From a virus, in IMG/VR virus record IMGVR_UViG_3300035682_000004: a DNA stretch of 64,000 nt, one strand, 5' to 3'. Numbering within the stretch: the stretch's first letter is position 1; every line of letters begins with the position of its first letter. This document shows positions 18,676 to 49,307 of the stretch, piece by piece. A model generated the notes under the pieces. That model did no database searches. It worked only from the letters and a program-made list of their open reading frames with translations, and was not told the DNA's origin. Made by a program: the position numbers and the translations under genes.

Positions 18676-19155
18676 ATGTCTACAGTAGTATTAATAGCTT
18701 GTTCAGCAACAAAATTACCTAAGCCAGCACCAGCTTTTGAATTATACTCATCAGATTTATTTCAAAAGAATTGGGCGTATGCTAAAAAATTAGCGGAAGA
18801 AAAAGATATCTACATTTTATCTGCAAAATTTCATTTAGTACCACATGATAAAGTTATACCACCGTATAATGTGACTTTAAAAGAGTTATCATCTGATAAA
18901 CGTAAAGAATGGTCAGATGAAGTATTAAAACAAATTCAAGCAAAAGGTTATAGTTTAGATAAAGACAAGTTTATATTTTTAGCAGGAAATGCTTACAGAC
19001 AATATTTAGTACCCGAAATGAAGCACACAGAAGTACCATTTGAAGGATTAAGAATTGGTCAACAAAAGAAAGCGTTATTACAAAAATTAGAAGAAAAATT
19101 AATTAGTTTTGCAAGGTATATTATTAATGAAGTTAAAAAAATTAATTTACTATGA
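18676..19155 (+). CDS. DUF6884/YaaA-like protein
   Basis: LIACSATK..A.ELYSS..F..ILSAKFHL..PYNVTL..FLAG..Y..GLRIGQQ pattern. Confidence 0.7.
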   Translation: MSTVVLIACSATKLPKPAPAFELYSSDLFQKNWAYAKKLAEEKDIYILSAKFHLVPHDKVIPPYNVTLKELSSDKRKEWSDEVLKQIQAKGYSLDKDKFIFLAGNAYRQYLVPEMKHTEVPFEGLRIGQQKKALLQKLEEKLISFARYIINEVKKINLL

Positions 19156-19438: not shown

Positions 19439-21292
19439 ATGTTGACATTAGAATCACAAATTCTGAGTGAGATTACTACCCACCTTAAGTACGCGAAGTA
19501 CTTACCCGAAGTAAAAAGAAGAGAAACTTGGGACGAATTAGTTACCCGAAACAAGGAAATGCATACTGAAAAGTATCCGGCATTAAAAGAAGAGATTGAT
19601 TGGGCTTATAAATTTGTGTATGACAAAAAGGTATTACCTTCAATGCGTAGTTTACAATTTGGTGGTAAACCAATTCAAATAAACAATTCAAGAATATTTA
19701 ATTGTTCTTATTTACCAATTGATGACATGGCTGCATTTTCTGAAATTATGTTTTTATTACTTTCAGGATGTGGAGTAGGTTATTCAGTACAACAACACCA
19801 CATTGAAAAATTACCTGAAATTAGAAAACCATTAAAATCTAAAAGATATTTAGTTGGTGACTCAATTGAAGGATGGGCTGACGCAGTTAAAGTATTAATG
19901 AAAGCTTACTTAAGAGGAGGTGCAGCACCTGCTTTTGACTTTAGAGATATTCGTCCTAAAGGAGCTGAGTTAATTACTGTAGGAGGTAAAGCACCAGGTC
20001 CAGAACCATTAAAAATTGCTTTAACACATGTACAAGCTATTTTAGACAGAAAACAAGATGGTCAAAAATTATCATCATTAGAATGTCATGATATTATTTG
20101 TCACTTAGCTGACGCAGTATTATCAGGTGGTATTAGAAGAGCAGCATTAATTTCATTATTTAATTTAGATGATGAAGAAATGTTAACTTGTAAATTTGGA
20201 AATTGGTGGGAAGAAAATCCACAACGTGGAAGAGCAAATAACTCAGCAATGTTGTTACGTTCTAAAATTGAAAAAGATACATTTTTAACATTATGGAAGA
20301 AAATTGAATTAAGTAATAGTGGTGAACCTGGTTTCTTATTCTCAAACGATAAGGACGCAGGTACAAATCCATGTGCTGAAATTAATTTAAAACCAAATCA
20401 ATTCTGTAACTTATGTGAAATCAATGCTTCAGATATTGATACACAAGAAGAATATAATGCGAGAGCTAAAGCAGCATCATTTATTGGAACATTACAGGCT
20501 TCATATACTGATTTTCATTACTTAAGAGATGTTTGGAAGAAAACAACTGAAAAAGAAGCATTATTAGGTATTGGAATGACAGGTATTGCTTCAGGAGCTG
20601 TTTTAAAATTAAACATGAAAGAAGCAGCTAAAGTAGCTGTTGAAGAAAATGAACGTGTAGCTAAAATTATTGGTATTAATAGAGCAGCTCGTGTTACAAC
20701 AGTTAAGCCATCAGGTACTACAAGTTTAGTATTAGGTACTTCATCTGGTATTCATGCTTGGCATGATGAGTTTTATGCTAGAAGAATTAGAGTAGGCAAA
20801 AACGAAGCGTTATATACTTACTTAAGTATCTATCACCCAGAATTATTAGAAGATGATTTCTTTAAACCAACTATTCAAGCTGTAATTTCAGTTCCACAAA
20901 AAGCACCTCAAGGAGCAATTACACGTTCAGAATCAGCTATTGATTTATTAGAACGTATTAAAACAATTAATAAAAATTGGATCAAACCAGGACATAGAAG
21001 AGGAGCTAACATGCATAATGTTTCTGCTACAGTAACTCTTAAACCTGATGAGTGGGAATCAATTGGAGAGTGGTTATTCGAAAATAAAGAATATTTTACA
21101 GCATTATCAGTTCTACCACATTCAGATCACACTTACGTTCAAGCACCATTTGAAACCATAGATGAGGACAAATTTAATGAAATGGTAAAAAGTTTACATA
21201 ACATTGACTTATCTAAAGTAATAGAAATGAATGACAACACAGCAAGACAAGACGAACTCGCCTGTGCCGGAGGAAATTGCGAAGTCCAATAA
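19439..21292 (+). CDS. nrdJ: Class II (AdoCbl-dependent) ribonucleotide reductase
   Basis: FNCSY, TNPCAEI, FCNLCE, TTVKPSGT, C-terminal CAGGNC; no beta-subunit gene in window. Confidence 0.88.
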   Translation: MLTLESQILSEITTHLKYAKYLPEVKRRETWDELVTRNKEMHTEKYPALKEEIDWAYKFVYDKKVLPSMRSLQFGGKPIQINNSRIFNCSYLPIDDMAAFSEIMFLLLSGCGVGYSVQQHHIEKLPEIRKPLKSKRYLVGDSIEGWADAVKVLMKAYLRGGAAPAFDFRDIRPKGAELITVGGKAPGPEPLKIALTHVQAILDRKQDGQKLSSLECHDIICHLADAVLSGGIRRAALISLFNLDDEEMLTCKFGNWWEENPQRGRANNSAMLLRSKIEKDTFLTLWKKIELSNSGEPGFLFSNDKDAGTNPCAEINLKPNQFCNLCEINASDIDTQEEYNARAKAASFIGTLQASYTDFHYLRDVWKKTTEKEALLGIGMTGIASGAVLKLNMKEAAKVAVEENERVAKIIGINRAARVTTVKPSGTTSLVLGTSSGIHAWHDEFYARRIRVGKNEALYTYLSIYHPELLEDDFFKPTIQAVISVPQKAPQGAITRSESAIDLLERIKTINKNWIKPGHRRGANMHNVSATVTLKPDEWESIGEWLFENKEYFTALSVLPHSDHTYVQAPFETIDEDKFNEMVKSLHNIDLSKVIEMNDNTARQDELACAGGNCEVQ

Positions 21293-24153: not shown

Positions 24154-25185
24154 ATGATATATTTTTATAAAAGCGGTTGGATAGACAACAGAAACATTAT
24201 TGTAGATTCAAGTACTATATATGGTTACTTAAATGAGTCAGATGTTAATAGTTTTAAAGCTAGTTTATTTAATTTTAAAAACAATAAAATTGAAGATGGT
24301 GATGTAGTTTGTTTTGGTAAAGATAATATTACTAGAGATAAGTTAAAAGATTTAAATGAACGAGTTAAATTTAAACGAGTAACAGATGAATCTAAAGCTG
24401 ATACATTAGTAATAGATGATATTTGGTTTTATGATAAAATAAAAGAGTCGAACTTAGTAGAATATTCATTTTTACCTTGTAATATAAAAACTAAATTACA
24501 TAGTAATGATCCATTTGTAAAAACAAATAATGTTGAAGTTTGCCTTGGAACAACAGAACATGTTAAGAGATATGGTAATCCTAAATTATCAATTGCAAAT
24601 CCAATTGTAAAATCTTATTATCAAATTGTAAATTCATATGTGTATAATAGAGATAGGTCAATTAATATAATTGTTGAAGAAGAGAGAGGAATGAATTTAG
24701 TTATATCAAAACTAAAACAAATTGCTAATTCATTAACAACAACTAAAAAAATTGTTTTAGCAAGTTCATTACAACATCAATTTAATGAAGATAGTATTGA
24801 ATTAAATGAGGAAACATATGAAACGTTAAAATCTATGTTTGCATCTTCAGATACAGAAAATACATTATTAGCTTTAGAAATTTTAGCAAACGCAAAAATA
24901 CCTGAAGAAAATAGAGTGTTAGTAACATTATTATTGTATAACAATCATTATGGTATAACTCCACTTGTTAAAACAAATAATATTAATAAGTTCTTAAAAT
25001 TATATAAATACGAGTATAAGTTAGGAAGAGAGCCAATGAGTCATGTGATGGGTTTATTAATGGATAAATATTACTCACCTAAATTTGAATCATTTATTAA
25101 AGCATTAATAGTTGATTATATCAATAAGCATTTACTTAATGATAAATCGTCAAAACATAGAATCTCAGCCATAGAGTTATCTTAA
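24154..25185 (+). CDS. Hypothetical protein
   Basis: 343-aa ORF directly after the AAA ATPase. Confidence 0.65.
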   Translation: MIYFYKSGWIDNRNIIVDSSTIYGYLNESDVNSFKASLFNFKNNKIEDGDVVCFGKDNITRDKLKDLNERVKFKRVTDESKADTLVIDDIWFYDKIKESNLVEYSFLPCNIKTKLHSNDPFVKTNNVEVCLGTTEHVKRYGNPKLSIANPIVKSYYQIVNSYVYNRDRSINIIVEEERGMNLVISKLKQIANSLTTTKKIVLASSLQHQFNEDSIELNEETYETLKSMFASSDTENTLLALEILANAKIPEENRVLVTLLLYNNHYGITPLVKTNNINKFLKLYKYEYKLGREPMSHVMGLLMDKYYSPKFESFIKALIVDYINKHLLNDKSSKHRISAIELS

Positions 25186-25191
25186 ATTAGG

Positions 25192-25223
25192 TTTGGCCTT
25201 CGGGCCATTCCTTATTACATTTA
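25192..25223 (+). promoter_or_regulatory. Bacteroidota-type promoter overlapping a cUUCGg hairpin
   Basis: TTTG-N20-TACATTTA; TGGCC-TTCG-GGCCA at 25194-25207. Confidence 0.7.
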
Positions 25224-25227
25224 AACA

Positions 25228-25737
25228 ATGACAGTAAAAGATATATTAAAAGAATTAGGATTTAATCATAAGATTAAAGCACCTCAAAAACCTAAATGGA
25301 ATGGAGCTAATAAATTTTATTGGTGGAGACGATTTCCAATCCATAAAGATCTCCACAAATACCAACCACTACAAAACAAAATAGATAACGGAGATTTTGA
25401 TTATACTCCTTATGCTAAGTATATAGATTATGAGCATTATTGGATGGCTGAAGAAATTTTAGCTATTAGAGAGCAAAATCTACGATTTAACATCAGACGA
25501 GAAAAAGAAGATGAAATCATAGTATCATATGCTAAACGTTTAAAACATTTAAGAGAAGATATGATGAAAGATGAGTTTAATCGTATTAAAGATTTTAAAG
25601 AAGCATTAAGGTATCATTTAGGTGGTACTAAAGATTTAGCAAATGATTATGTTGAGGAAATAGAAGGTACTTTAACTGAGATAGCTTCACATTATCCAAA
25701 ATGGTTAGAACAAAGAAAATTAAGTTTGGCAAATTAA
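25228..25737 (+). CDS. Hypothetical protein
   Basis: 169 aa, FYWWRRF motif; own promoter. Confidence 0.65.
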   Translation: MTVKDILKELGFNHKIKAPQKPKWNGANKFYWWRRFPIHKDLHKYQPLQNKIDNGDFDYTPYAKYIDYEHYWMAEEILAIREQNLRFNIRREKEDEIIVSYAKRLKHLREDMMKDEFNRIKDFKEALRYHLGGTKDLANDYVEEIEGTLTEIASHYPKWLEQRKLSLAN

Positions 25738-25757
25738 TAAAATCTTTTATATTTATA
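25725..25757 (+). promoter_or_regulatory. Promoter of deazaguanine operon (matches both motif classes)
   Basis: TTTG-N19-TATATTTA, continuing as ATATTTATA. Confidence 0.65.
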
Positions 25758-25769
25758 TAAAATAAAGTT

Positions 25770-26564
25770 ATGCAAGTATCACATGAACTCCCTCTCAATT
25801 TATTAAACAAATCTTATTCATGGAATGACTATGACTATTGTCTTCCTCATTTAATTGATAAACATACAGCATATAAAGAATACTTTACTAGAGCTAGAAA
25901 TCATGGTCGTTTTATAATTTGTGATAATGGTTTATTTGAAGGTGTGACTCACACTGAAAAAGATTTAATTGAAAAAATTAATCTAATCAAACCAGATATT
26001 TTTATTGTTCCTGATGAATGGAATGATACAGCTATTACTCATAGAAATGCTAAATATTGGATGAATACACTTAGAGCTCAGTTACCTGAAAAAACTGAAT
26101 TAATGGTAGTAATGCAAGGACATACATTAGGAGATTTTATGAATCTATATAATCAGTGTGTTGCTTTAGGTTATACTCATTTTGCATTTAATCATTCATC
26201 TATATATTACCAACATGATGGTTATCATCCAAATCCATTAGTGAATCAAATGATAAATAGAATTTATGTAATTTCTAGATTATATAAAGAAAAAATTATT
26301 AAAGATAGTCATTATGTTCACTTATTAGGAGCCTCGTTACCTCAAGAATTCCTATATTATAATGATCCAAAATATGCTTTTATTAAGTCTGTCGACACAT
26401 CTAATCCGGTTATTGTAGGCGCGTTAGGTCAGTTTTATGAGGAATATGGTTTATTAACTAAACCAAAAAATAAAATTGAAGAGTTTATGGAGAAAGAATT
26501 TAGTAAAAAAGAAATAGAAGTTATACAAAGTAACATTAACAAATTTAAATCGTTTATAAAATGA
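25770..26564 (+). CDS. TGT-fold deazaguanine transglycosylase-like protein (DpdA family)
   Basis: IICDNGLFE, VPD, VVMQG, VHLLG, SVDTSNP match TGT-barrel motifs; heads the queCDE/folE cluster. Confidence 0.72.
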   Translation: MQVSHELPLNLLNKSYSWNDYDYCLPHLIDKHTAYKEYFTRARNHGRFIICDNGLFEGVTHTEKDLIEKINLIKPDIFIVPDEWNDTAITHRNAKYWMNTLRAQLPEKTELMVVMQGHTLGDFMNLYNQCVALGYTHFAFNHSSIYYQHDGYHPNPLVNQMINRIYVISRLYKEKIIKDSHYVHLLGASLPQEFLYYNDPKYAFIKSVDTSNPVIVGALGQFYEEYGLLTKPKNKIEEFMEKEFSKKEIEVIQSNINKFKSFIK

Positions 26565-26761
26565 GAAGATTAATTGATTGGATTAAAAGAAAACAAGACA
26601 TTATATTGTTTTACCTTGCAGGATTATCTGTTTGGGTTTTATTAACTGTATTTATAGAATCTTATAAACAAGATCTTAAATATAAAGAAATGCAATACAA
26701 ACGTGATAGTATAGATTACGAATTAAAGAAACAAGATTACGAATTTTTTAAACAACAATAA
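26561..26761 (+). CDS. Small single-TM protein
   Basis: Hydrophobic stretch ILFYLAGLSVWVLLTVFI. Confidence 0.55.
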   Translation: MRRLIDWIKRKQDIILFYLAGLSVWVLLTVFIESYKQDLKYKEMQYKRDSIDYELKKQDYEFFKQQ

Positions 26762-26762
26762 A

Positions 26763-27617
26763 ATGAAAAAACAAGCAGTATTATCATTAAGTGGAGGAAT
26801 GGATAGTTCTAGCTTACTGCTTCATCTACTTGCCAATGGCTATGAAGTAACAGCATTATCCTTTGACTATGGTCAAAAACACAATGTGGAATTAGAACGA
26901 GCTAAGGAATTAGTTGATTATTTAAATAGTAAAGCAGATGAAGTTAAATACAAATCTGAAACATCAGAAGTTATTTTACATCATTTTCTTAGAGTTAAAC
27001 ATCAAGTAATTACTTTAGATGGTTTAGCTCAATTATTAAATTCATCATTAGTATCAGGTGGTTCTGAAGTACCTGAAGGTCATTATGCTGAAGAAAATAT
27101 GAAAGCAACTGTAGTACCTAATCGTAACAAAATATTCAGTTCAATTATTCAAGCAGTTGCATTATCAATTGCTGAACAAAAGAATACTGAGTGTGTAATT
27201 GCTATGGGTATACACGCAGGTGACCATCAGATCTATCCAGATTGTAGACAAGAGTTTCGTGATATTGATTATGAAGCATTTAAAGCTGGTAATTGGGGTG
27301 CTGAGAAGGTAACATATTATACTCCGTACTTAACCGGTGATAAATACACTATATTAGAGGATGGCGCAGCGTGTTGCAATACATTAGGCCTTGACTTTAA
27401 CGCAGTATATAGCCGGACTAATACGTCTTATAAGCCGTATCCGTCAGGCAATTCAGATTATAAATCAGCATCATCAGTTGAACGTGTTGAGGCATTTATT
27501 AAATTAGGTCGTCCTGATCCTGTTCAATATGAAGATGAAACTGGATTAGTTAATTGGGAAACAGTAGTTCAATATGTACAAAATATCTTAACCAGCCATG
27601 AAGCAACCAGATCCTAA
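26763..27617 (+). CDS. queC: 7-cyano-7-deazaguanine synthase (Zn-site Cys absent)
   Basis: SGGMDS PP-loop, FDYGQKH, VPNRN, YPDCR. Confidence 0.92.
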   Translation: MKKQAVLSLSGGMDSSSLLLHLLANGYEVTALSFDYGQKHNVELERAKELVDYLNSKADEVKYKSETSEVILHHFLRVKHQVITLDGLAQLLNSSLVSGGSEVPEGHYAEENMKATVVPNRNKIFSSIIQAVALSIAEQKNTECVIAMGIHAGDHQIYPDCRQEFRDIDYEAFKAGNWGAEKVTYYTPYLTGDKYTILEDGAACCNTLGLDFNAVYSRTNTSYKPYPSGNSDYKSASSVERVEAFIKLGRPDPVQYEDETGLVNWETVVQYVQNILTSHEATRS

Positions 27618-27753
27618 ATTACATCAATATATTAGTTTTCTTAAATCAGGAATTAGAATATTAGGTTATATTACTTTACCTTTTAACTTGGCTCTAGCAG
27701 CTGTTATACTTATATTAAGTGAGTTAATTGGTATTGTAGAGGAATTAGTATGA
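27598..27753 (+). CDS. 51-aa membrane protein (not in ORF track)
   Basis: MKQPDPKLHQYISFLKSGIRILG..SELIGIVEELV; ATGA overlap with next gene. Confidence 0.65.
   Translation: MKQPDPKLHQYISFLKSGIRILGYITLPFNLALAAVILILSELIGIVEELV
27687..27718 (+). promoter_or_regulatory. Bacteroidota-type promoter (intragenic)
   Basis: CTTG-N20-TATATTAA. Confidence 0.55.
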
Positions 27754-27947
27754 AAAAACAAAAAGAAGAGAAACAACCATTTTATATAGTTTTGAATAAG
27801 AATGGAGAGGTGTTTGTAGGCTTATTAGGTGGTCAATCAGTTTGGTCAGCTAATTGGGATGAAGCAAAACCACTCCTATATTCAAGTACAAAATATTTAA
27901 AACAACAAAATAAAGAAATAGAATTAATAGACGAAAAACAATTTTAA
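27750..27947 (+). CDS. Hypothetical protein
   Basis: 65-aa ORF in operon. Confidence 0.6.
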   Translation: MKKQKEEKQPFYIVLNKNGEVFVGLLGGQSVWSANWDEAKPLLYSSTKYLKQQNKEIELIDEKQF

Positions 27948-27948
27948 T

Positions 27949-28194
27949 ATGAAAGGATTTATATACTTCAGTGCTGAATGGTGTCAACCATGTAAAATAT
28001 TAGGCCCAATTATGGAACAAGTTGCTAAACAAGTTCCAGTAAATAAAGTAAATGTAGACTATGATGTCACATTAACTAAACAATATAATATAACAAGTGT
28101 TCCTACTGTTGTTTTAGTAGATGGAGTTGAAAAAGCTAGATTTATAGGAGTAAAACCAATAAATGATATAGTAAATTTCTATAATAATAATTAA
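27949..28194 (+). CDS. Thioredoxin
   Basis: FSAEWCQPCK, SVPT. Confidence 0.9.
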   Translation: MKGFIYFSAEWCQPCKILGPIMEQVAKQVPVNKVNVDYDVTLTKQYNITSVPTVVLVDGVEKARFIGVKPINDIVNFYNNN

Positions 28195-28195
28195 T

Positions 28196-28675
28196 ATGGC
28201 TAGATATATTTCAACGAAAGTATTTGACAATTATTCAGTTGCAATAAGACAATGGAAAGCACAGCATTCACATTGTCAATTATTACATGGTTATGGAATT
28301 TACTTTAAAGTATGGTTTGCATCTAACCAACCAGATTTAGACAAACAATTAGATGAAATGAATTGGATTGTTGATTTTGGAGGATTTAAATCAAAACCAG
28401 TAGGAAATGGATTAAAAGATTGGATGGACCATATGTGGGACCATACATTACTAGTTGAAAAAGATGATCCATTTGCTGATGTATTTGAACAATTAGGACA
28501 AATGGGATTAGCTAAAGTTCATTTAATGGATAAAATGGGTTGCGAATCATTAGCTAAATTAGTTTCAGATAAATTTAATGAAGTATTATCTAATACAGAT
28601 GGCGCTAGATGTAAAGTAATTAAAGTAGAGTGTTTTGAACACGGTAAGAATTCATCAATTTTTGAAGCAGAATAA
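28196..28675 (+). CDS. queD: 6-carboxy-tetrahydropterin synthase
   Basis: SHCQLLHGY, VDFG, WDHTLL, GCESLA, ECFEH; cluster context. Confidence 0.88.
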   Translation: MARYISTKVFDNYSVAIRQWKAQHSHCQLLHGYGIYFKVWFASNQPDLDKQLDEMNWIVDFGGFKSKPVGNGLKDWMDHMWDHTLLVEKDDPFADVFEQLGQMGLAKVHLMDKMGCESLAKLVSDKFNEVLSNTDGARCKVIKVECFEHGKNSSIFEAE

Positions 28676-28680
28676 TAGTT

Positions 28681-29451
28681 ATGGATAGAATATTAGATTA
28701 TAATAAAAAAATACAAGTGATAGAAATTTATCCTTGTGTTCAAAGTGAAGGTAGTAGACAAGGAAGACCTACAGTTGCTGTTAGAACAACAGGCTGTACT
28801 CACAGATGTTGGTTTGGTGAAGGTGGATGGTGTGATTCTTGGTATACAAGTATTCACCCTGAAAAAGGTAAATTTACATTTAACGACATCGTTAAAATAT
28901 ATGATGAAAATCCTCATATTAAAGAAATGATGTTAACAGGTGGTGCACCTACAATGCATCCAGCATTAGTAAACGAATTAACACATTTTGCAAATGAAAG
29001 AGGTATTCTTATCACTATGGAAACTGAAGGTAGTCACTTTATTGAGACTGATTTTCCTATCGGTCTCTTATCTATTAGCCCTAAGTTTAGCAATAGCGTT
29101 CCTAGGGTTGGGATTCTTACTCCACTTGGTAAAGAAGTGGATCAAAAGTTTGTGGACCAACATAACAAATACCGTCTTAACATTCCTGAAATTAAACAGA
29201 TGATTGAATTTCATTCTGATTATCATTTAAAACCAGTATGGGATGGTACAGAAGAAAACTTAGCTGAAATTGAAGCATTTAGAGTTGAGTTAGGTATTCC
29301 TAAAAATAAAACATGGATTATGCCAGCTGGTGATACAGCAGAAGAATTAACTAGAATGTATCCAATTTCAATTGAAATGTGTACTAAAGAAGGTTATAAT
29401 TGGACTGGTAGAGATCATATCATCGCTTACGGACAAAAGAGAGGTGTATAA
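28681..29451 (+). CDS. queE: 7-carboxy-7-deazaguanine synthase (radical SAM)
   Basis: VQSEG, VRTTGCTHRC..WCDS, LTGGAP, ETEG, SISPK. Confidence 0.9.
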   Translation: MDRILDYNKKIQVIEIYPCVQSEGSRQGRPTVAVRTTGCTHRCWFGEGGWCDSWYTSIHPEKGKFTFNDIVKIYDENPHIKEMMLTGGAPTMHPALVNELTHFANERGILITMETEGSHFIETDFPIGLLSISPKFSNSVPRVGILTPLGKEVDQKFVDQHNKYRLNIPEIKQMIEFHSDYHLKPVWDGTEENLAEIEAFRVELGIPKNKTWIMPAGDTAEELTRMYPISIEMCTKEGYNWTGRDHIIAYGQKRGV

Positions 29452-29636
29452 TGTGTTACGTTATTATTAAAAATATTAAAACAGCAAAAGCTACTATACC
29501 TGTGATCATCTTAGATGGTCACGGGGAAGTTTTAGAATTTGAAACTAAAGACAAAGCTGAAGACTTTAAAGCACTATTAGAAATCAATTCAGATTCAGGA
29601 CATGAGTTTACATTACGTAAAATTCATACTCGATAA
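29451..29636 (+). CDS. Hypothetical protein
   Basis: 61-aa coupled ORF. Confidence 0.6.
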   Translation: MCYVIIKNIKTAKATIPVIILDGHGEVLEFETKDKAEDFKALLEINSDSGHEFTLRKIHTR

Positions 29637-29643
29637 TATTTAT
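29636..29643 (+). promoter_or_regulatory. Putative late promoter ATATTTAT
   Basis: 4 nt before ATG 29648. Confidence 0.55.
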
Positions 29644-29647
29644 CACC

Positions 29648-29929
29648 ATGAACAAAAAATTACTTAAAGAATCAATCCAACGTAAGGAAAAATCTATATT
29701 TTTCTTTTATACAGAATGGTGTGATCATTGCACTAAAATTAAATCTACAATAAACGAAATTGCTAAGGCAAGACCAGACCATAAATTAGTAGAAATTGAT
29801 AATGATGAAGAAGAAACAGAATTTATCTCAGAATTATTTGATGTTCAGTTCTTACCTGCGGTAGTAGTTTTAAGTGAGACAGGTTACAAAAAATATGAAG
29901 GTTCTATAAAAATTAAAAAATTGTTATGA
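29648..29929 (+). CDS. Thioredoxin-like protein
   Basis: FYTEWCDHC, FLPAVV. Confidence 0.85.
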   Translation: MNKKLLKESIQRKEKSIFFFYTEWCDHCTKIKSTINEIAKARPDHKLVEIDNDEEETEFISELFDVQFLPAVVVLSETGYKKYEGSIKIKKLL

Positions 29930-30429
29930 TTGAACTATTTGGACAACAACAAATAGAAATAAGAACAAGAATACTAGCAAAAAACATTTCAGACGAACAT
30001 AGAGGAGACAAAACACCAGTTGTTATGGTCTGTGTTCTAAATGGTGGTTTTATGTTTTATACTGAATTAGTAAAAGCATTAACAACAGATATTGAATGTG
30101 ATTTTGTTAGAGTAAAAAGTTATGTTTCTAAAAATAATCAAGGTGATATTAAAATTACTAAAGATTTAGAAATACCAATTAAAGGAAAACATGTATACTT
30201 AGTAGATGATATTTTTGACTCAGGTAATACAATGAAGGCTTTAATTGAGTTCATTAAAATTAAAAATCCAAAATCAATTAATGTTGTAACTTTAGCTAAA
30301 AGAAAAAAAACTGAACCATTAGAAAATATGGTTTGGGGATTTGAAGTAGATGAAGAGTGGTTATGCGGAATGGGAATGGATAATGAAAATGGTCATCTTA
30401 GAAACCATCCAGTTTTATATGCCTTATAG
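29926..30429 (+). CDS. hpt: Hypoxanthine/guanine phosphoribosyltransferase
   Basis: VLNGG, VKSY, PRPP loop VYLVDDIFDSGNT, GMGMD. Confidence 0.88.
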   Translation: MIELFGQQQIEIRTRILAKNISDEHRGDKTPVVMVCVLNGGFMFYTELVKALTTDIECDFVRVKSYVSKNNQGDIKITKDLEIPIKGKHVYLVDDIFDSGNTMKALIEFIKIKNPKSINVVTLAKRKKTEPLENMVWGFEVDEEWLCGMGMDNENGHLRNHPVLYAL

Positions 30430-30461
30430 TTTGGCATTATTAAAATAAATTATTATAATAC
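30430..30461 (+). promoter_or_regulatory. Bacteroidota-type promoter variant
   Basis: TTTG-N20-TATAATAC. Confidence 0.55.
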
Positions 30462-30467
30462 AGTTAT

Positions 30468-31202
30468 ATGAAAGATAAAGTTATAAACAATAGACGTAAA
30501 ACAGCTGACATTGAGAAATTAGAGACAGCACAAGCAGGTTTTGCAAATGGTATTTCATTGCAATTAAAAGACCTAATTAATAAAGGACAACATCGTTCTT
30601 TAAATGACAAAGAAAAGAAAAAAATTATTACTAATGCTGAAAAAGCATATGGTAAATTTTTAACTGCGTTAGGTGTAGATTGGGAAAATGATCCGAACAG
30701 TATGGAAACACCACGTCGTGTATCTAAAGCCTATGTAAATGATTTATGGAGAGGTAGGTATGAAATACCAACTGAAATCACAGCATTCCCAAGTGATGGA
30801 TATAATGGTATTGTTTTAGAAAGAGATATTCCAGTAACAAGTATGTGTTCTCATCATCACCAAGCTATCTTAGGTAATGTTCATATCGCTTATATTCCAG
30901 GACCAGAAGGTAAAGTAATTGGTTTAAGTAAATTAAATCGTATTGTAGAACATTTTGGTAGAAGAGGTGCAATTCAAGAACAATTAACAGTAGCAATTCA
31001 TAATGCAATTAATGAAATTTGTGAAGGCAATATTGGAGTAATGGTTATTATACATGCAGGTCACCAATGTGTTTCTTGTAGAGGAGTTAAACATCAAGGC
31101 GCCAGTATGGTCACAAGTGAAGTATCAGGTGCATTTGCAGATCATACTAAAACAGCAAAACAAGAAGTATTATCAATGATAAAATTAAAATTATGTTGCT
31201 AA
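30468..31202 (+). CDS. folE: GTP cyclohydrolase I
   Basis: ETPRRV, SMCSHH, GLSKLNR, QEQLT, HQCVSCRG. Confidence 0.95.
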   Translation: MKDKVINNRRKTADIEKLETAQAGFANGISLQLKDLINKGQHRSLNDKEKKKIITNAEKAYGKFLTALGVDWENDPNSMETPRRVSKAYVNDLWRGRYEIPTEITAFPSDGYNGIVLERDIPVTSMCSHHHQAILGNVHIAYIPGPEGKVIGLSKLNRIVEHFGRRGAIQEQLTVAIHNAINEICEGNIGVMVIIHAGHQCVSCRGVKHQGASMVTSEVSGAFADHTKTAKQEVLSMIKLKLCC

Positions 31203-31690
31203 CAGGACATCAAGTATTCCAGTATATGGAAATGAATGGTACAGACTACCATAAAGTAAATCAAGTAGGTATTGATTTATCAGTTAAAAAAATCGAAAAA
31301 ATTATTGGTGGAGTATTAGTTTTCCAAGAAAAAACAGTAGTTGATCCTTCATTATTTATTGAAATACCTTTAACAAGTATTGAAGGTAGACAAATGTGGA
31401 GACTAGAAAGAGGAGCTTATGCTTTAACCTTTAATGAAGGTGTTTCAATTCCTTCTCATGCTACAGGATTTATCACATCACGTTCTTCTATTTATAGAGG
31501 AGGTGCTCATATTAATTCACCTATGTGGGATCCAGGATTTATGACTAGAGAAATGGGAACTACATTAATGTTAGAAGCTGAAACTATATTCATTGAGGAA
31601 AATGCTCGTGTATGCCAGTTTTATATGCTTACAAATCCTATTCCTCAAGACCTATATGATGGTCAGTTTCAAGGTAAAACAAATTACTAA
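31193..31690 (+). CDS. Trimeric dUTPase/dCTP-deaminase-family protein
   Basis: GIDL, SRSS, WDPGF, RVCQF, YDGQFQG. Confidence 0.82.
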   Translation: MLLTGHQVFQYMEMNGTDYHKVNQVGIDLSVKKIEKIIGGVLVFQEKTVVDPSLFIEIPLTSIEGRQMWRLERGAYALTFNEGVSIPSHATGFITSRSSIYRGGAHINSPMWDPGFMTREMGTTLMLEAETIFIEENARVCQFYMLTNPIPQDLYDGQFQGKTNY

Positions 31691-31713
31691 CTCTATCATA
31701 TCTTTTATCTTTT

Positions 31714-31740
31714 AAGGCTTGGTTTTCCAAGCCTTTTTTC
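31714..31740 (+). terminator. Rho-independent terminator
   Basis: AAGGCTTGG-TTTT-CCAAGCCTT then TTTTC. Confidence 0.85.
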
Positions 31741-31749
31741 TTATATTAG
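31718..31749 (+). promoter_or_regulatory. Bacteroidota-type promoter embedded in terminator
   Basis: CTTG-N20-TATATTAG, 4 nt before polB ATG. Confidence 0.6.
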
Positions 31750-31753
31750 CAAT

Positions 31754-34417
31754 ATGTATCAAAGCTGTTATTACGATTTTAACGAGAAAAAATATTATTT
31801 AAGAGATGACAAACATGGTTGGTCTGATTTTAAGTACTATCCTACTTACTATGTAAATGATATAAATGGAGACCAATACACATTAGAAGGTGATTGTGTG
31901 TTGGCTACTAAGAAAATGGATGATTGGAAAAATCCTAAGTATTATGAAAAAGATGTTGATAAAATAACTCGTTTATTAGTTGACACTTATTATGAGACTG
32001 ATGATACACCTTCATTCCAAAATATAGTTTACCTAGATATTGAGTGTGAGATATTAGGAGCATTAACCGCTGAAAGTATAAAACAAGCATTAGCTAAAAT
32101 TACTTCAGTTTCAGTATATGACGCTACTACTAAAAAATATTATTGTTTAATTTTAGATGAACAAAATAATCTAAACACTATTAACAATCCAGGTAAAGAA
32201 GTAGTTCCATTTACAACTGAATTAGAGTTATTACAAGCATTTTTAGCATTATGGGAACAACTTGATCCAACTATTGTTACAGGTTGGAATAGTGGTTTCT
32301 TTGATATACCTTATTTGTATCATAGAATATCTAAAGTAGCAGGTGAAAGTGAAGGTAAACGTTTATCTCCAATAGGTAAAATTAAAACTGTAGAATATGA
32401 TACAGAACAACCAATAGTAATAGGAGGAGTGAATCACTTAGACTATATGTTGTTGTTTAAAAAGTTTATCATGAAACAAGAACCATCATATCGATTAAAT
32501 GATATTGGTTTAAGATATGCTGACTTAGGTAAAGTTGAATATCAAGGTTCATTAGATAACCTATTTAAAGAAGATCCAGAAAAATTTATTGAGTATAATA
32601 TTCGAGATGTTGAAATCATTGTTGAGTTAGAAAACAGAATGAAGTTTATAGACTTAACAGTTACAATTGCTCATTTATGTCATACTGAATATGAACAAAT
32701 TTATTATTCAACTATGTTGAATGAGGGTGCTATTTTAACTTACCTAAAACGAAAAGGAGTAGTTTCACCTAATAAACCTACAACTTATAATCCATACTTA
32801 AAAGAGATTAATCCTAGAAAAGCAGAAGCACTTTATCGTAGTGGTCAAATGACTAAAGATGAGTATGATGAAATTTTAGTGTTAGCTGGTTATGCAGGTG
32901 GTTATCTAAAAGATCCAGTACCTGGATTATATGATTGGGTGATTGACTTAGACTTTACTTCGCTATATCCTTCTATAATTCGTTCTTTAAACATGGGAAT
33001 AGAAACGTTAGTAGGTCGTGTTGTAAATAATGGTAAGTTTGATAACCAGTGGTCTCTGCGGGAACTAAAACAAATGGATCCTGAAAGAAAAATTAAGATT
33101 GAAAAAGTAAAAAAAGATAGAACAGTATCTACTTCTGTTACAACAGTAGGAAATCTAGTAAATCTAATTGAACATAATGACTTAATTATATCTGCACCTG
33201 GAGTTATATTTAAAAAAGATGTATCAAGTGTTGTTTGTGAAATTTTAACTGACTGGTTTGTAAAAAGACAGGAGTATAAAAAACTAATGAAGGACGCTTA
33301 TAAAGTTAAAAATGACCCTGTATTAGGAGAATTTTATAATAGTAGACAACATGCTTATAAAATTAAGTTAAATGACGTTTATGGAGTGTTTGCTCAAAAC
33401 GGATGGAGATATACTGATGGAAATAAGTTTATTAGTAAAGCAATTACTTTAACAGGTCAAAGATTGACTCAAGAATCAATTAAGTTTGTTAATGAATGGA
33501 TGAATGAACAATTAGGTTCAGATGATAAAGATTATATTGTAACATCAGATACTGACTCACTATTTATTCAAGTTAAAGATTTAGCATTAAAAAGAAATCC
33601 AAATCTAATAAACGCTTCTAAAGAGGAATGGGTTAAATATATTTTAGAGATTGCAACTGAAATTCAAAAGGAAGCTAATAATCACCTACACACATTAGTA
33701 AAAGATTTATTCAATGTTAAATACCCAGATGAACCTCATTACTTTGAGTTAAAACAAGAGGTAGTACTTGAAAGAGGTTATTTTGCAGGTAAAAGAAGAT
33801 ATGCAATGCATATTGTAAATAAAGAAGGTGTACCAACAGATGAACTAGTAATGATGGGTTTAGATCTAATGAAATCTAATTTTCCACCTTTATTTAGAAA
33901 CTTTGGAGAACATATTTTAAAAGAAATTATGTATGGTAAATCTAAATCTTCAATTGATGAACAATTATTAGTGTTTAGAGAGTCATTAAGAACTATTGAC
34001 TGGCATCAGATACTAAAACCTACAGGATTAAAACAAATGTCTAGTTATATAGCGGCTAGACCAGGAGCCGGTGAAATATTTTCTAGATTAGCTTTAAAAT
34101 GTCCTATTAACACTAAATCAGCTGTTTATTATAATGATATTTTAAGATTTAAAAAACTAGACAAACAATTCCCAACATTCCAAATAGGTGATAAAATGTA
34201 TATTGCTTACCTAAAAGAAAATCCATATAAAATAGATGTTATGGGATTTAATGGTTATAATGATCCTCCTGAAATAATGGAGTTTATTGAAAAATATATT
34301 GACCGTGACCGAATATTTGAATCGGTTATGAGAAACAAATTAGAGGGAGTGTATGAAGATTTAGGATGGGGAGCTCCGATATTTAACCGTAATGTCCACA
34401 AATTTTTTAAATTTTAA
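31754..34417 (+). CDS. Family-B DNA polymerase with 3'-5' exonuclease
   Basis: Exo motifs DIECE, GWNSGFFDIPY, YNIRDV; pol motifs DFTSLYPS, KIKLNDVYG, SDTDS, KRRY. Confidence 0.95.
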   Translation: MYQSCYYDFNEKKYYLRDDKHGWSDFKYYPTYYVNDINGDQYTLEGDCVLATKKMDDWKNPKYYEKDVDKITRLLVDTYYETDDTPSFQNIVYLDIECEILGALTAESIKQALAKITSVSVYDATTKKYYCLILDEQNNLNTINNPGKEVVPFTTELELLQAFLALWEQLDPTIVTGWNSGFFDIPYLYHRISKVAGESEGKRLSPIGKIKTVEYDTEQPIVIGGVNHLDYMLLFKKFIMKQEPSYRLNDIGLRYADLGKVEYQGSLDNLFKEDPEKFIEYNIRDVEIIVELENRMKFIDLTVTIAHLCHTEYEQIYYSTMLNEGAILTYLKRKGVVSPNKPTTYNPYLKEINPRKAEALYRSGQMTKDEYDEILVLAGYAGGYLKDPVPGLYDWVIDLDFTSLYPSIIRSLNMGIETLVGRVVNNGKFDNQWSLRELKQMDPERKIKIEKVKKDRTVSTSVTTVGNLVNLIEHNDLIISAPGVIFKKDVSSVVCEILTDWFVKRQEYKKLMKDAYKVKNDPVLGEFYNSRQHAYKIKLNDVYGVFAQNGWRYTDGNKFISKAITLTGQRLTQESIKFVNEWMNEQLGSDDKDYIVTSDTDSLFIQVKDLALKRNPNLINASKEEWVKYILEIATEIQKEANNHLHTLVKDLFNVKYPDEPHYFELKQEVVLERGYFAGKRRYAMHIVNKEGVPTDELVMMGLDLMKSNFPPLFRNFGEHILKEIMYGKSKSSIDEQLLVFRESLRTIDWHQILKPTGLKQMSSYIAARPGAGEIFSRLALKCPINTKSAVYYNDILRFKKLDKQFPTFQIGDKMYIAYLKENPYKIDVMGFNGYNDPPEIMEFIEKYIDRDRIFESVMRNKLEGVYEDLGWGAPIFNRNVHKFFKF

Positions 34418-39115: not shown

Positions 39116-39534
39116 TGACACCTTGGGATTTTATAAAAAATCTTACTGTAAATAAAACAAAGTGGGATTCATATACTGAGAATGAAAAAAATGATTTTAA
39201 CTCATATATGGCTCATAAAGTATTAAGTATGGATGAGAAGTATATTGAATTAACAAACTTAGTTCAAAAGCTACCTCCAGCTGAAAAGAAACAAATATAT
39301 AATGTTTACTTAAATATTTTACCTACTAAACCATTATATAGTAAGTATATAAAATCCACCATTAAGTCTTATTCACCTGAACTATTAACTCATATAGCTT
39401 TTTATTTTGAATGTTCAAAAAAGGAAGCTAGTGAATATATTAAAATATTACCTAAACAGGAAATGGAAAATATATTCAGTGAGTTAGGTTTAGATGAAAA
39501 ATTAAAAAAAACATTAATTAAAGAAATAAAATAA
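39115..39534 (+). CDS. Probable clamp loader small subunit (T4 gp62-like)
   Basis: FNSYMAHKVLSM, YFECSKKEASEY; near gp44-like gene. Confidence 0.7.
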   Translation: MTPWDFIKNLTVNKTKWDSYTENEKNDFNSYMAHKVLSMDEKYIELTNLVQKLPPAEKKQIYNVYLNILPTKPLYSKYIKSTIKSYSPELLTHIAFYFECSKKEASEYIKILPKQEMENIFSELGLDEKLKKTLIKEIK

Positions 39535-40016
39535 TGTCAGGTCCAATTAAAAAATATAATAACAGAGAAATCAATTTTCATAAAGAAATGTCAGAACCAG
39601 TAGCATCTTACAACACTAAAGTGAAAGATCACTCTAAAGAAGCAGCTCAAATTAATACTAAACTAATTGACTATCCTAAAATGCCAGAAGCAATTCAAAT
39701 ATTAAAAAAAGAATATCCTACTATTGCTGATGGTTATGAACAAATAATTTTAGAACAATATGAATTATTTGCTAAAAAACATTTAGACTATGGTATGTCA
39801 AATATTTCAGCTGGTACTCAATTATCAAATACTGATGAAATAGAATTTGCATTAACTGGTTTATGGTATAGACTAAATGATAAAGTTAATCGTTGGAAAA
39901 ATATGATTATCAATAAACGTAAGGTAAATAATGAACCTTTAATTGATACATATCAGGATATTACTAACTATGGAATTATAGCTCAGTTAGTAGAACGTGG
40001 TCTTTGGAAGAAATAA
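39534..40016 (+). CDS. DUF1599/Nmad1-like protein
   Basis: KKHLDYG, RLNDKVNR, DTYQDITNYGII. Confidence 0.75.
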   Translation: MSGPIKKYNNREINFHKEMSEPVASYNTKVKDHSKEAAQINTKLIDYPKMPEAIQILKKEYPTIADGYEQIILEQYELFAKKHLDYGMSNISAGTQLSNTDEIEFALTGLWYRLNDKVNRWKNMIINKRKVNNEPLIDTYQDITNYGIIAQLVERGLWKK

Positions 40017-41228: not shown

Positions 41229-42671
41229 ATGAATTCAAGTTTCGCTTATTTGCCTCCTGAGAAGAGGAAGAAAATTCTCCTAATATGTGATGATATTAGA
41301 GTCCATTCAGGAATTGCTACTGTCGCTCGAGAAGTAGTTTTACACACCGCACAACATTTTAATTGGGTTAATATTGGAGGAGCTATCCAACATCCTGATG
41401 CAGGTAAACGTTTTGATTTATCTCAGGATACAAATGTAAATTCAGGTTTAAAAGATTCATCTGTAATCTTATATCCAGTAAATGGCTATGGAGATCCAAC
41501 ATTATTAAGATCTTTAATCCAAATTGAAAAACCAGATGCTATTTTTATTATTACTGACCCAAGATATTTTATTTGGTTATTCCAAATGGAAGGTGAGTTA
41601 CGTAAAAAATTACCTATTATTTATTTAAATATTTGGGATGATTACCCAGCTCCACTTTATAATAAAGCATTTTATGAAGCTTGTGATGCGTTATTAGGTA
41701 TTTCAAAACAAACAGTTAATATTAATAAATTAGTATTAGGTGATAAAGCAAAAAACAAAATCATTAAATATGTTCCTCATGGTTTGAATCATGAAATGAT
41801 GTTTCCAATTGATGAAAAACATGATCAATATAAAGACATGATTGAATTCAAGAAACAAGTATTTGGAGGAAAAGATTATGAATTTGTAGTTTTCTTTAAC
41901 TCTAGAAACATTCGTAGAAAACAAATTCCAGATACAATGTTAGCCTATAAATACTTTATAGATCAATTACCAGAAGAAAAAGCTAAAAAATGTGCTTTCT
42001 TATTACATACTCAAATAGTAGATGATAATGGTACTGATTTAGAAGCAGTTAGAGAGTTATTATTAAATGATGATAAGTATAATGTTATATTTTCTCAAAA
42101 TCGTTTAGGATCTCAACAAATAAATTGGTTATATAATTTATCTGATGTTCAAATTCAATTAACATCAAATGAAGGATGGGGATTAAGTTTAACTGAAGCA
42201 TTATTAGTAGGAAATCCAATTATTGCTAACGTAACAGGTGGAATGCAAGACCAAATGCGTTTTGTTAAAGATGGCAAATGGATGGAATTAGACGCTGATT
42301 TTCCTTCAAATCATAATGGCACAATTAAAGAATGTGGAGAATGGGCATTTCCAGTATTTCCAACTAATAGATCATTAGTAGGTTCACCTTTAACTCCTTA
42401 TATTTGGGATGACAGGTGTACGTCAGAAGATGCAGCTGAACAATTAATGAATGTTTATTCTTTAAGTAAAGAAGAAAGAAAAGCTAGAGGAGCAAAAGGT
42501 AGAGAATGGGCATTAAGTGATGAGTCAGGATTTACATCTGAAAAAATGGGTGAAAATATTATTGAAACATTAGATGAATTATTTGCTACTTGGAAACCAA
42601 GAGAAAAATATGAGTTTATTAATTTAAATAAAGTAAAAGACAGAGTTATTAACCACAAATTATTATATTAA
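41229..42671 (+). CDS. GT-B glycosyltransferase (GT4-like)
   Basis: VPHG, NSRNIRRK, NEGWGLSLTEA, TGG. Confidence 0.88.
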   Translation: MNSSFAYLPPEKRKKILLICDDIRVHSGIATVAREVVLHTAQHFNWVNIGGAIQHPDAGKRFDLSQDTNVNSGLKDSSVILYPVNGYGDPTLLRSLIQIEKPDAIFIITDPRYFIWLFQMEGELRKKLPIIYLNIWDDYPAPLYNKAFYEACDALLGISKQTVNINKLVLGDKAKNKIIKYVPHGLNHEMMFPIDEKHDQYKDMIEFKKQVFGGKDYEFVVFFNSRNIRRKQIPDTMLAYKYFIDQLPEEKAKKCAFLLHTQIVDDNGTDLEAVRELLLNDDKYNVIFSQNRLGSQQINWLYNLSDVQIQLTSNEGWGLSLTEALLVGNPIIANVTGGMQDQMRFVKDGKWMELDADFPSNHNGTIKECGEWAFPVFPTNRSLVGSPLTPYIWDDRCTSEDAAEQLMNVYSLSKEERKARGAKGREWALSDESGFTSEKMGENIIETLDELFATWKPREKYEFINLNKVKDRVINHKLLY

Positions 42672-42676
42672 TTGTT

Positions 42677-44438: not shown

Positions 44439-44439
44439 T

Positions 44440-45081: not shown

Positions 45082-45084
45082 TCA

Positions 45085-45747: not shown

Positions 45748-45762
45748 AATATAAAAATAAAT

Positions 45763-48364: not shown

Positions 48365-48367
48365 AAT

Positions 48368-49306: not shown

Positions 49307-49307
49307 T

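Follow-up and report, generated by a model that had tools for sequence, protein, structure and literature searches.

We analyzed a stretch of 64,000 nucleotides from an uncultured T4-like aquatic (freshwater) phage of roughly 170 kb (IMG/VR record IMGVR_UViG_3300035682_000004; the whole stretch is called the window below, and all positions refer to it) and found that the gene cluster at positions 25770 to 31690 is very probably a DpdA3-type system for the modification of DNA with 7-deazaguanines. The cluster encodes a guanine transglycosylase of the DpdA3 subfamily together with FolE, QueD, QueE, and QueC, and is followed by the gene of a family B DNA polymerase (PolB), which ends at position 34417. 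Our favored reading, to which we assign a probability of roughly 45%, is that guanine is exchanged on a deoxyguanine nucleotide or nucleoside ahead of polymerization. The main value of the window is that it offers a test case for how DpdA3 phages reach the total replacement of guanine.

A sequence-only reading of the window had listed a gene resembling tRNA guanine transglycosylase (TGT), queC, queD, queE, folE, hpt, two thioredoxin genes, a gene of the dUTPase family, and polB, and all of these are present on the plus strand, with Pfam, PHROG, and NCBIfam recognizing all but the first (Table 1). Its description of the module as self-contained also holds, as a complete preQ0 pathway from FolE through QueD and QueE to QueC is accompanied by an enzyme of the DpdA family. 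The module genes are tightly packed on this strand, abutting or overlapping by a few bases, in a window with a GC content of ~29% that carries nearly all of its genes in the same orientation. The identities of FolE, QueD, QueE, and QueC are assigned by homology, from which their activities are predicted.

Table 1 Features of the modification module and its surroundings, ordered by position in the window.
Feature	Position	Strand	Evidence and remarks
Class II (B12) ribonucleotide reductase, RTPR-like	19439-21292	+	NCBIfam TIGR02505 4.2e-80, below cut-off; Pfam RNR barrel
Terminator-like hairpin, 5' of the unit	25190-25207	+	Consensus scan; between the 343-aa open reading frame (ORF) that ends at 25185 and the ORF at 25228
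Upstream neighbor of DpdA3	25228-25737	+	169 aa, basic, all-helical
DpdA3-subfamily guanine transglycosylase	25770-26564	+	264 aa, minimal TGT barrel
Small ORF, hydrophobic segment	26561-26761	+	66 aa; in 4 related loci; no family match
QueC	26763-27617	+	Pfam QueC 2.6e-37; four zinc cysteines replaced
Small hydrophobic ORF	27598-27753	+	51 aa; tblastn matches in 11 related loci, mostly 3' of QueC; no family match
Thioredoxin 1	27949-28194	+	CQPC; Pfam Thioredoxin 1.6e-13
QueD/6-carboxytetrahydropterin synthase	28196-28675	+	Pfam PTPS 3.5e-10; PHROG QueD-like 1.2e-33
QueE/7-carboxy-7-deazaguanine synthase, radical S-adenosylmethionine enzyme	28681-29451	+	PHROG 2.4e-45
Thioredoxin 2	29648-29929	+	CDHC; Pfam Thioredoxin 9.6e-11
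Hpt-type 6-oxopurine phosphoribosyltransferase (PRT)	29926-30429	+	Pfam 2.4e-25
FolE/GTP cyclohydrolase I	30468-31202	+	Pfam 5.2e-46
dUTPase/dCTP-deaminase-fold (d)NTP pyrophosphatase candidate	31193-31690	+	Pfam DCD 6.8e-11
Terminator-like hairpin, module/PolB gap	31714-31735	+	9-bp GC-rich stem and T-run; RNAfold -14.1 kcal/mol
Family B replicative DNA polymerase (PolB)	31754-34417	+	Pfam DNA_pol_B 1.1e-30 and exonuclease domain; 63 bp past the module

The assignment of the transglycosylase is based on kinship and fold. We found no TGT match for the gene in Pfam (PF01702) or NCBIfam at E ≤ 0.01, its profile reached the DpdA structure 7ui4 in the PDB only at an E-value of 0.034, and the protein falls in PHROG 19058 (6.6e-29), an unannotated family. 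However, its identity to the protein annotated as DpdA in Flavobacterium phage immuto is 33% (E 4e-41). To a hypothetical protein that Campylobacter phage CP220 shares with its relatives it is 36% over 231 amino acids (E 3e-24), and to phi13:1 gp036 of a Cellulophaga phage it is 22% (E 3e-10). The immuto, CP220, and phiST-type proteins were named DpdA3 by Cui/Hutinet 2023 (PMC10516641), and the kinship to them places the window protein in this subfamily and bears out the earlier call of a DpdA/TGT-like gene. In addition, the gene is encoded with folE, queD, and queE inside 5.5 kb, an arrangement that is kept in related loci.

The AlphaFold2 (AF2) model of DpdA3, which like the conservation analysis was built on 86 homologues, reached a pLDDT of 97.5. 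The top 50 Foldseek matches in the PDB were all TGT (E 5e-9 to 2e-7). In VIA alignments, the model matched archaeosine TGT with a Z-score of 17.6 (root mean square deviation (rmsd) 3.2 Å, 230 aligned residues), the bacterial DpdA 7ui4 with 17.2 (rmsd 3.6, 231 aligned), and bacterial TGT with 16.0, while other TIM barrels scored at Z ≤ 15 and thus below all TGT and DpdA matches. By both methods, the protein therefore models as a TGT barrel. Among the homologues, D52, D82, H184, L186, and G187 are invariant, and D209 is at least 90% conserved. A profile alignment of the segment HLLG...DTSNP with bacterial DpdA pairs L186 with Leu236 and D209 with Asp256, the latter being the experimentally verified nucleophile of that enzyme (PMC10164549). 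D52 with F56 at position +4 mirrors Asp95/Phe99 of DpdA, so that hydrophobic residues for base stacking are kept along with the aspartates, and the motifs can also be aligned with the DpdA of Vibrio phage VpKK5. By this comparison, D209 would be the nucleophile, D52 the general acid/base, and D82 a base-binding residue, where the roles of D52 and D82 are assigned by motif spacing.

Past the nucleophile, DpdA3 continues for ~55 residues; it has three cysteines in total and no CxCxxC...H motif. Bacterial DpdA carries an insertion at this point, which makes up 30% of the protein and includes a zinc site and the wedge residue Phe265 (PMC10164549). With so few residues after the nucleophile and only three cysteines, DpdA3 is evidently without the zinc/Ins8 subdomain for nucleic-acid binding. 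The family is mildly acidic, with a mean isoelectric point of 5.6 in 120 homologues. Long homologues are fused only to homing-endonuclease modules of the GIY-YIG/NUMOD type and, in one case, to a formyltransferase; none of the long homologues inspected is fused to a kinase, an NTPase, or a PRT. The label "NadR" of a DpdA3-like gene in Bacillus phage BSTP12, which seemingly indicated a kinase fusion, is an annotation artefact, since the protein has only 262 amino acids.

Additional information on the chemistry came from the preQ0 enzymes. QueC (64%), QueE (65%), FolE (63%), and QueD (41%) are identical to the immuto enzymes to the extent given in brackets. Three of them have non-canonical metal motifs: QueC is without the four zinc cysteines, QueE has C-x3-C-x7-C instead of CxxxCxxC, and QueD has HGY instead of HGH. 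Immuto has the same QueC, QueE, and QueD variants, including the Cys-less C-terminal motif of QueC, and since its DNA is modified with a 7-deazaguanine, the variant enzymes of the window are presumably functional. The CP220 enzyme QueC*, to which the window QueC is only 35% identical, retains the zinc cysteines and has been proposed to stop at the amide (ADG). The QueC type of the window presumably completes the nitrile, because the fdPreQ1 of immuto derives from preQ0 via QueF.

The statement of the sequence-only reading that the window holds no queF, gat-queC, or arcS was confirmed within the ORFs scanned. A tblastn search of the window with immuto QueF was negative, and no QueF Pfam match was obtained in ~80 ORFs, with ORFs below ~80 amino acids partly covered. 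Nor did any QueF match exceed the Pfam cut-off in two relatives with a completeness rating of 100%; their weak QueF matches fall on FolE, as the T-fold is common to both enzymes. The window QueC has no glutamine amidotransferase domain, and the scanned ORFs gave no match to ArcS, to DpdN, or to a second QueD of the DpdL type. Without QueF, DpdN, and DpdL, the final base is most likely dPreQ0, which we regard as probable. A further derivative made by the small ORFs of the module is unlikely, and dADG still less likely. The earlier proposal of dPreQ0, dADG, or a new derivative is thereby supported and narrowed by the type of QueC and by the missing genes. In all three chemically analyzed DpdA3 phages, the whole of guanine is replaced, by dADG in CP220, by dDG in phiST, and by fdPreQ1 in immuto (PMC10516641). 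By analogy, replacement in the phage studied here would be near-complete. Unlike these three phages, it combines DpdA3 and QueC without QueF, and its variant of the system further includes two thioredoxins, a PRT of the Hpt type, and an NTPase with the dUTPase fold, in a phage clade with PolB and GroEL. The window thus represents a gene combination that predicts fully dPreQ0-substituted DNA.

Genes for nucleoside triphosphate (NTP) pyrophosphatases and small kinases were found to accompany DpdA3 in several lineages. The candidate pyrophosphatase of the window, which has the dUTPase/dCTP-deaminase (DCD) fold, scored 42.9 with Pfam DCD (cut-off 27), 88.6 bits as an archaeal-type dUTPase (cut-off 130), and 31 as a dCTP deaminase (cut-off 92.8), and matched PDB entry 9w59 (2e-10). 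Among 50,697 cultured-phage records, only 7 contain its subfamily; one of them is Chryseobacterium phage MA9V-3, where the gene lies inside the DpdA3 module (order FolE-RecA-NTPase-(DpdL-like)-P-loop kinase-DpdA3). Environmental loci of the phiST type have a DCD-fold NTPase where phi13:1 has MazG, and some loci of the window type carry a MazG/PRA-PH enzyme of the immuto type in the DCD slot. Counting here and below only loci with enough flanking sequence, an NTPase of either fold was present in 14 of 17 window-type, 64 of 67 immuto-type, and all 4 phiST-type loci, and the two folds never occurred together. This non-orthologous displacement at a fixed position argues for an NTP-to-NMP pyrophosphatase as a component of DpdA3 modules.

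A small P-loop kinase is located no more than two genes from DpdA3 in four lineages (AAA_28 in CP220 and immuto, AAA_18 in phi13:1 and MA9V-3, and BSTP12). CP220 gp057 and immuto gp68, both labeled as thymidylate kinase and one to two genes away from DpdA3, are orthologous AAA_28 P-loop kinases (E 9e-20). Such a kinase was found in 62 of 67 immuto-type loci (L106-L185), which have the near-invariant order QueD-QueE-PRT-FolE-MazG-(66-aa ORF)-DpdA3-DpdN-AAA_28 kinase-QueF. An AAA_18 kinase is encoded directly upstream of DpdA3 in phi13:1 (gp035) and in MA9V-3, and a P-loop protein (BSTP12_039) occupies that place in BSTP12. In immuto-type and phiST-type loci, NTPase, DpdA3, and kinase are adjacent, while the NTPase candidate of CP220 (gp055) is ambiguous. 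Two Queuovirinae clusters that we inspected have neither a kinase nor an NTPase. Hence, the NTPase/kinase neighborhood correlates with the DpdA subfamily that gives 100% replacement. Close relatives of the window with 89-95% identical DpdA3 (G001, G002, G004, and G005), as well as two complete relatives, carry an AAA_28 ortholog elsewhere in the genome. Pfam models for thymidylate kinase and MazG gave in the relatives only weak matches to P-loops of clamp loaders and no MazG; the relevant families are AAA_28 and PRA-PH.

The pathway that we propose from these data would start with the conversion of GTP to the free base preQ0 by FolE, QueD, QueE, and QueC. The dUTPase/DCD-fold enzyme, replaced by a MazG-type enzyme in sister lineages, would hydrolyze dGTP to dGMP and so keep guanine out of the DNA. 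At C1' of the deoxyribose, DpdA3 would then swap guanine for preQ0, a reaction predicted from catalytic residues placed by alignment and model. A P-loop kinase, possibly the AAA_28 gene product that close relatives encode and whose gene would lie outside this window, would re-phosphorylate the product for incorporation by PolB, and the Hpt-type PRT might return the released guanine to GMP and, via GTP, to the pathway. An NTP pyrophosphatase, a base-converting enzyme, and a kinase are the general logic of base replacement at the level of the nucleotide pool. Exchange at the nucleotide level is supported because DpdA3 is without the nucleic-acid-binding subdomain, and because kinases in four lineages and interchangeable NTP pyrophosphatases in three flank its gene. 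Furthermore, attempts to modify DNA with DpdA3 in Escherichia coli failed, whereas DpdA2 was active there, and the ADG nucleoside was detected in CP220-infected Campylobacter cells (PMC10516641). A route via modified dGTP had earlier been proposed for Campylobacter phages by Crippen 2019, as cited in PMC6884629. The sequence-only reading had likewise suggested pre-replicative substitution. The NTPase/kinase neighborhood and the missing subdomain make this plausible; of the three reasons originally given, those based on hpt and on the polymerase do not stand, as detailed below. More broadly, and more tentatively, DpdA3 may not be a DNA transglycosylase but the first enzyme of the TGT fold with a free deoxyguanine nucleotide or nucleoside as the substrate of base exchange, acting with a dGTP-destroying pyrophosphatase (MazG, dUTPase-fold, or HD), a small P-loop kinase, and a guanine-recycling PRT in a pre-replicative pathway that has gone unrecognized. 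If true, this would account for the restriction of 100% guanine replacement to DpdA3 phages, and the clade of the window would provide the first genomes with dPreQ0 wholly in place of G.

Several points weigh against this reading. We know of no TGT-fold enzyme that acts on a mononucleotide; those characterized act on tRNA, DNA, or protein (Cap10). In the literature searched, we found no publication that characterizes any DpdA3 biochemically, and the study that introduced the subfamily concludes that 7-deazaguanines are in all cases inserted after replication (PMC10516641). The AAA_28 kinases may be nicotinamide-riboside kinases of the NadR type that serve NAD salvage, and they occur also in Streptomyces and Achromobacter phages, where the DpdA3 search found no homologue. 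No kinase gene lies in or near the module of the window, whose P-loops belong to recombinase, helicase, MoxR, and clamp-loader genes only. The DCD gene scores best as a dUTPase, and both the DCD-fold and the MazG-type enzymes could be ordinary dUTPases, whose trimeric and dimeric forms are known to substitute for one another. CP220 gp055, which combines an HD domain with a P-loop, could be an end-healing enzyme of the HD-Pnk type that acts on RNA or DNA. In addition, synteny inside one phage clade is partly inherited and not independently selected. As regards the base, the call of dPreQ0 assumes that no unassigned ORF, including the 169-aa upstream gene, modifies preQ0.

We also examined the two other arguments for a nucleotide-level route, beginning with the PRT. 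The enzyme scored 141 bits with the NCBIfam model TIGR01203 for hypoxanthine-guanine phosphoribosyltransferase (HGPRT) (cut-off 150) and matched more than 50 H(G)(X)PRTs in the PDB, the best being the HGXPRT 4qri (7e-27). Its phosphoribosyl pyrophosphate (PRPP) motif VDDIFDSGNT is intact and the Asp that contacts N7 of the purine is kept; the purine-binding loop is atypical. The PRT gene adjoins folE in 12 of 17 window-type, 66 of 67 immuto-type, and 3 of 4 phiST-type loci, and two PRT subtypes fill this one slot across clades. Two Queuovirinae, VpKK5 and a Stenotrophomonas phage, encode a "GTP cyclohydrolase I" of ~300 amino acids in which the FolE domain starts at residue 117 and the 115 residues at the N-terminus show homology to the small immuto PRT (L097:4998-5900 for VpKK5; L096:4971-5864 for the Stenotrophomonas phage). 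In the literature searched, we found no publication on this link or fusion of PRT and FolE. As the PRT domain is thus fused to FolE also in a subfamily for which partial modification is reported, hpt does not argue for exchange at the nucleotide level: the PRT is tied to FolE, a GTP consumer, whatever the level of replacement, and so does not discriminate between exchange on DNA and on nucleotides. Nor is it universal, since CP220 has no PF00156 match for a PRT despite full replacement of G. The simplest reading of its role is the recycling of guanine released by any base exchange, which fits because the N7-contacting Asp is kept.

The second argument, the closeness of the polymerase gene, is generic. 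In the Queuovirinae, DpdA is followed by a clamp and PolA, in phi13:1 DpdA3 is followed by PolIII-alpha, and in BSTP12 by PolI. The module had been described as running directly into the polymerase gene; the two are physically adjacent, but a terminator-like hairpin intervenes. In 9 of the 13 relatives with readable downstream sequence (6 of 9 distinct sequences), consensus scans and folds placed a GC-rich hairpin 3' of the dUTPase-fold gene; these hairpins differ in sequence and mostly have a short T-run. As terminator-like hairpins bracket it, the region from 25228 to 31690 looks like a transcription unit of its own and PolB like the next, so that PolB is probably transcribed separately. In some related loci (L006, L007, L009, L013, L030, L064, L066, and L070), a near-palindromic AT-rich motif, ACATATTTATATGT, mostly followed by AAATA, lies past the hairpin and may be a phage promoter or a regulatory site; it is not present at the corresponding position in the window. 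In PolB itself, motif B (near residue 536) reads KIKLNDVYG, with Asp in place of the Ser of T4/RB69-type polymerases, and motif C reads TSDTDS. The same motif B was seen in five related contigs. This variant might relate to copying or incorporating a 7-substituted deazaguanine. It cannot separate pre-replicative from post-replicative models, as the parental templates are modified in both.

According to the published model, the exchange is post-replicative: PolB would synthesize DNA with guanine, and DpdA3 would flip out each guanine and insert preQ0, with Hpt feeding FolE. The dUTPase-fold gene, the thioredoxins, and the ribonucleotide reductase would then be ordinary nucleotide metabolism that shares the replication region. 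We take this to be nearly as likely as exchange at the nucleotide level, as DpdA3 is homologous to transglycosylases that act on DNA and tRNA and has identical catalytic residues, the Hpt-FolE link is found in Queuovirinae too, and the Hpt of the window retains the Asp that contacts N7 and scores just short of the HGPRT equivalog cut-off. The dUTPase-like score of the DCD-fold protein and the lack of a kinase in the module point in the same direction. Cui/Hutinet 2023 moreover reason from the presence of a DpdA in all 7-deazaguanine phages that modification takes place after replication (PMC10516641). What this model leaves unexplained are the kinase and NTP-pyrophosphatase genes that flank DpdA3 and are absent from the DpdA1/2 clusters inspected, and it would have to operate without the zinc/Ins8 subdomain used for nucleic-acid binding. 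To our knowledge, the other natural total base replacements (hydroxymethylcytosine (hmC), hydroxymethyluracil (hmU), deoxyuridine (dU), and diaminopurine) are all made in the nucleotide pool, which also counts against it. The failure of heterologous DpdA3 to modify DNA, where DpdA2 succeeded, is again difficult to reconcile with it (PMC10516641).

Whatever probability lies beyond exchange on nucleotides and on DNA falls to a ribonucleotide route driven by the PRT, to mixed modes, or to a role outside DNA. In a route resembling toyocamycin synthesis, the PRT would join preQ0 and PRPP, host kinases and the class II reductase with the thioredoxins would yield dPreQ0TP for PolB, and DpdA3 would mop up residual guanine. 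Enzymes thought to catalyze such a step are ToyH and TubE in the deazapurine pathways of Streptomyces. The PRT, the RTPR-like reductase, two thioredoxins, the NTPase, and PolB do lie inside 12 kb, two PRT subtypes keep their position beside FolE, and the purine loop is atypical. We nevertheless consider this route improbable: the N7-bonding Asp is kept, whereas a 7-cyano-7-deaza base has no N7 and a bulky C7 group, the PRT-FolE fusion of Queuovirinae fits the supply of guanine nucleotides better than the consumption of preQ0, and CP220 replaces all G without a PF00156 match. A pool of preQ0 ribonucleotide would also enter RNA. Even less probable is that these are auxiliary metabolic genes which boost or alter queuosine-type modification of host tRNA. 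FolE, QueD, QueE, and QueC are indeed the cellular pathway to the queuosine precursor, but the transglycosylase belongs to the DpdA3 family, whose three analyzed carriers have fully substituted DNA, is without the zinc and tRNA-binding parts of TGT, and is encoded in a module that sits among replication genes.

We also compared the module with known systems. Immuto is similar in its DpdA subfamily, its preQ0 enzymes with their variant motifs, a PRT adjoining FolE, an NTP pyrophosphatase in the cluster, and likely its host phylum. It differs in having QueF, the formyltransferase DpdN, and the AAA_28 kinase in the cluster, all three of which the window cluster is without, in a 131-aa minimal PRT compared to the full-length Hpt type of the window, in a MazG/PRA-PH instead of a dUTPase/DCD fold of the NTPase, in PolA instead of PolB, and in its base (100% fdPreQ1, compared to the dPreQ0 expected here). 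CP220 (Firehammervirus, 100% dADG), a T4-like myovirus of ~177 kb, has a DpdA3 homologue and a gene of the QueC family; its genes are scattered, whereas those of the window form a single run, and its DpdA3 is flanked by the HD and P-loop protein and the AAA_28 kinase. The phages phiST, phi13:1, and MA9V-3 share with the window a distant DpdA3 and the order FolE-NTPase-...-DpdA3-polymerase, and MA9V-3 and its environmental relatives use the same rare subfamily of DCD-fold NTPases. They differ as siphoviruses with PolIII-alpha, no QueC, a QueD-like DpdL instead, and an AAA_18 kinase directly 5' of DpdA3. The base dDG makes up 100% in phiST (PMC10516641) and was also found in phi13:1.

The Queuovirinae with DpdA1/DpdA2, represented here by VpKK5 and Stenotrophomonas phage vB_SM_ytsc_ply2008005c, resemble the window in the preQ0 pathway, in DpdA lying 5' of clamp and polymerase, and in the linkage of PRT and FolE, which are fused. 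Their DpdA of ~307 amino acids reached 21% probability in hhalign against the DpdA3 profile, although the motifs align. In DpdA1/DpdA2 phages, 0.1-30% of G is replaced, values that come from members of the subfamily other than VpKK5 and the Stenotrophomonas phage (PMC10516641). Our proposal is also analogous to the pathways of T4 and S-2L in that a canonical dNTP would be destroyed, the monophosphate converted and re-phosphorylated, and the product polymerized. T4 uses dCTPase, dCMP hydroxymethylase, and dNMP kinase for replacement at the pool level, and S-2L-type phages use MazZ, DatZ, and PurZ. In contrast to both, the converting enzyme would be a transglycosylase of the TGT fold, and the kinase would be encoded outside the window.

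DpdA3 is a very large family: a library of 1.8 billion representatives yielded 1339 clusters at 50% identity (E ≤ 1e-3), and the 90% clusters contain over 1000 of its proteins. Its size in aquatic viromes implies that its chemistry bears on a sizeable share of environmental phage DNA. In the 80 related IMG/VR loci, the order DpdA3-QueC-(Trx)-QueD-QueE-PRT-FolE-NTPase recurs, in many cases with PolB next, and none of these loci has QueF or DpdN of the immuto type. Since the closest contigs are 89-95% identical in DpdA3, the window belongs to an abundant uncultured clade. Total replacement of a canonical base is rare and shapes the evasion of restriction and of CRISPR as well as behaviour in sequencing. 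Dedicated host glycosylases target DNA with modified bases and cut at 7-deazaguanine (bioRxiv 10.1101/2025.10.29.685425). Together with its relatives, the window provides comparative evidence on whether guanine is substituted before replication, as put forward in Crippen 2019 according to its citation in PMC6884629, or after it, as held by Cui/Hutinet 2023.

Regarding the surroundings of the module, homologues of the 169-aa protein encoded upstream of DpdA3 lie immediately 5' of DpdA3 in 25 of the 80 related loci. The protein has no Pfam or PHROG match, and its AF2 model (pLDDT 81, helices only) gave no significant match in the PDB (Foldseek E > 1; VIA Z ≤ 7, which is noise level for helical proteins). 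A comparison with the ESM Atlas likewise brought no usable match. A relation to MazG was rejected by hhalign. The preceding 343-aa ORF (24154-25185) was considered as the counterpart of the HD-kinase gp055 of CP220; the two are equal in length but unrelated, and the ORF has no family match. In addition to the small ORFs in Table 1, others begin at 27750 and 29451. Both module thioredoxins have non-canonical active sites (CQPC and CDHC). Thioredoxin 1 has homologues in 34 related loci, where the gene frequently lies between QueD and DpdA3. The ribonucleotide reductase, which is nearest to the monomeric B12-dependent triphosphate reductase, is probably served by the thioredoxins.

Family scans of the window further revealed a tail sheath, a T4-type baseplate protein, a UvsX/RecA-like recombinase, a 5'-3' exonuclease, and a DnaB-like helicase, as well as a MoxR/VWA pair, GroES/GroEL, clamp-loader subunits, a PD-(D/E)XK nuclease, ClpP, and an ATP-dependent ligase. 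Among the replication genes, we found a strong match to DUF6884 at 18676-19155 (3e-43) and a weak one to DUF1599, "nucleotide modification associated domain 1", at 39534-40016 (5.6e-05, below cut-off). DUF6884 was rejected as a shared component of DpdA3 systems, since CP220, phi13:1, immuto, and two complete relatives all lack it. Finally, a glycosyltransferase island of nine kb (41229-50186) encodes two GT1-type enzymes, a GT2-type and a GT90-like enzyme, a DUF707 protein, and a UDP-galactopyranose mutase (Glf, 1.6e-75); we saw no support for a part of the island in DNA hypermodification, and it might serve the decoration of virion proteins or host glycans.

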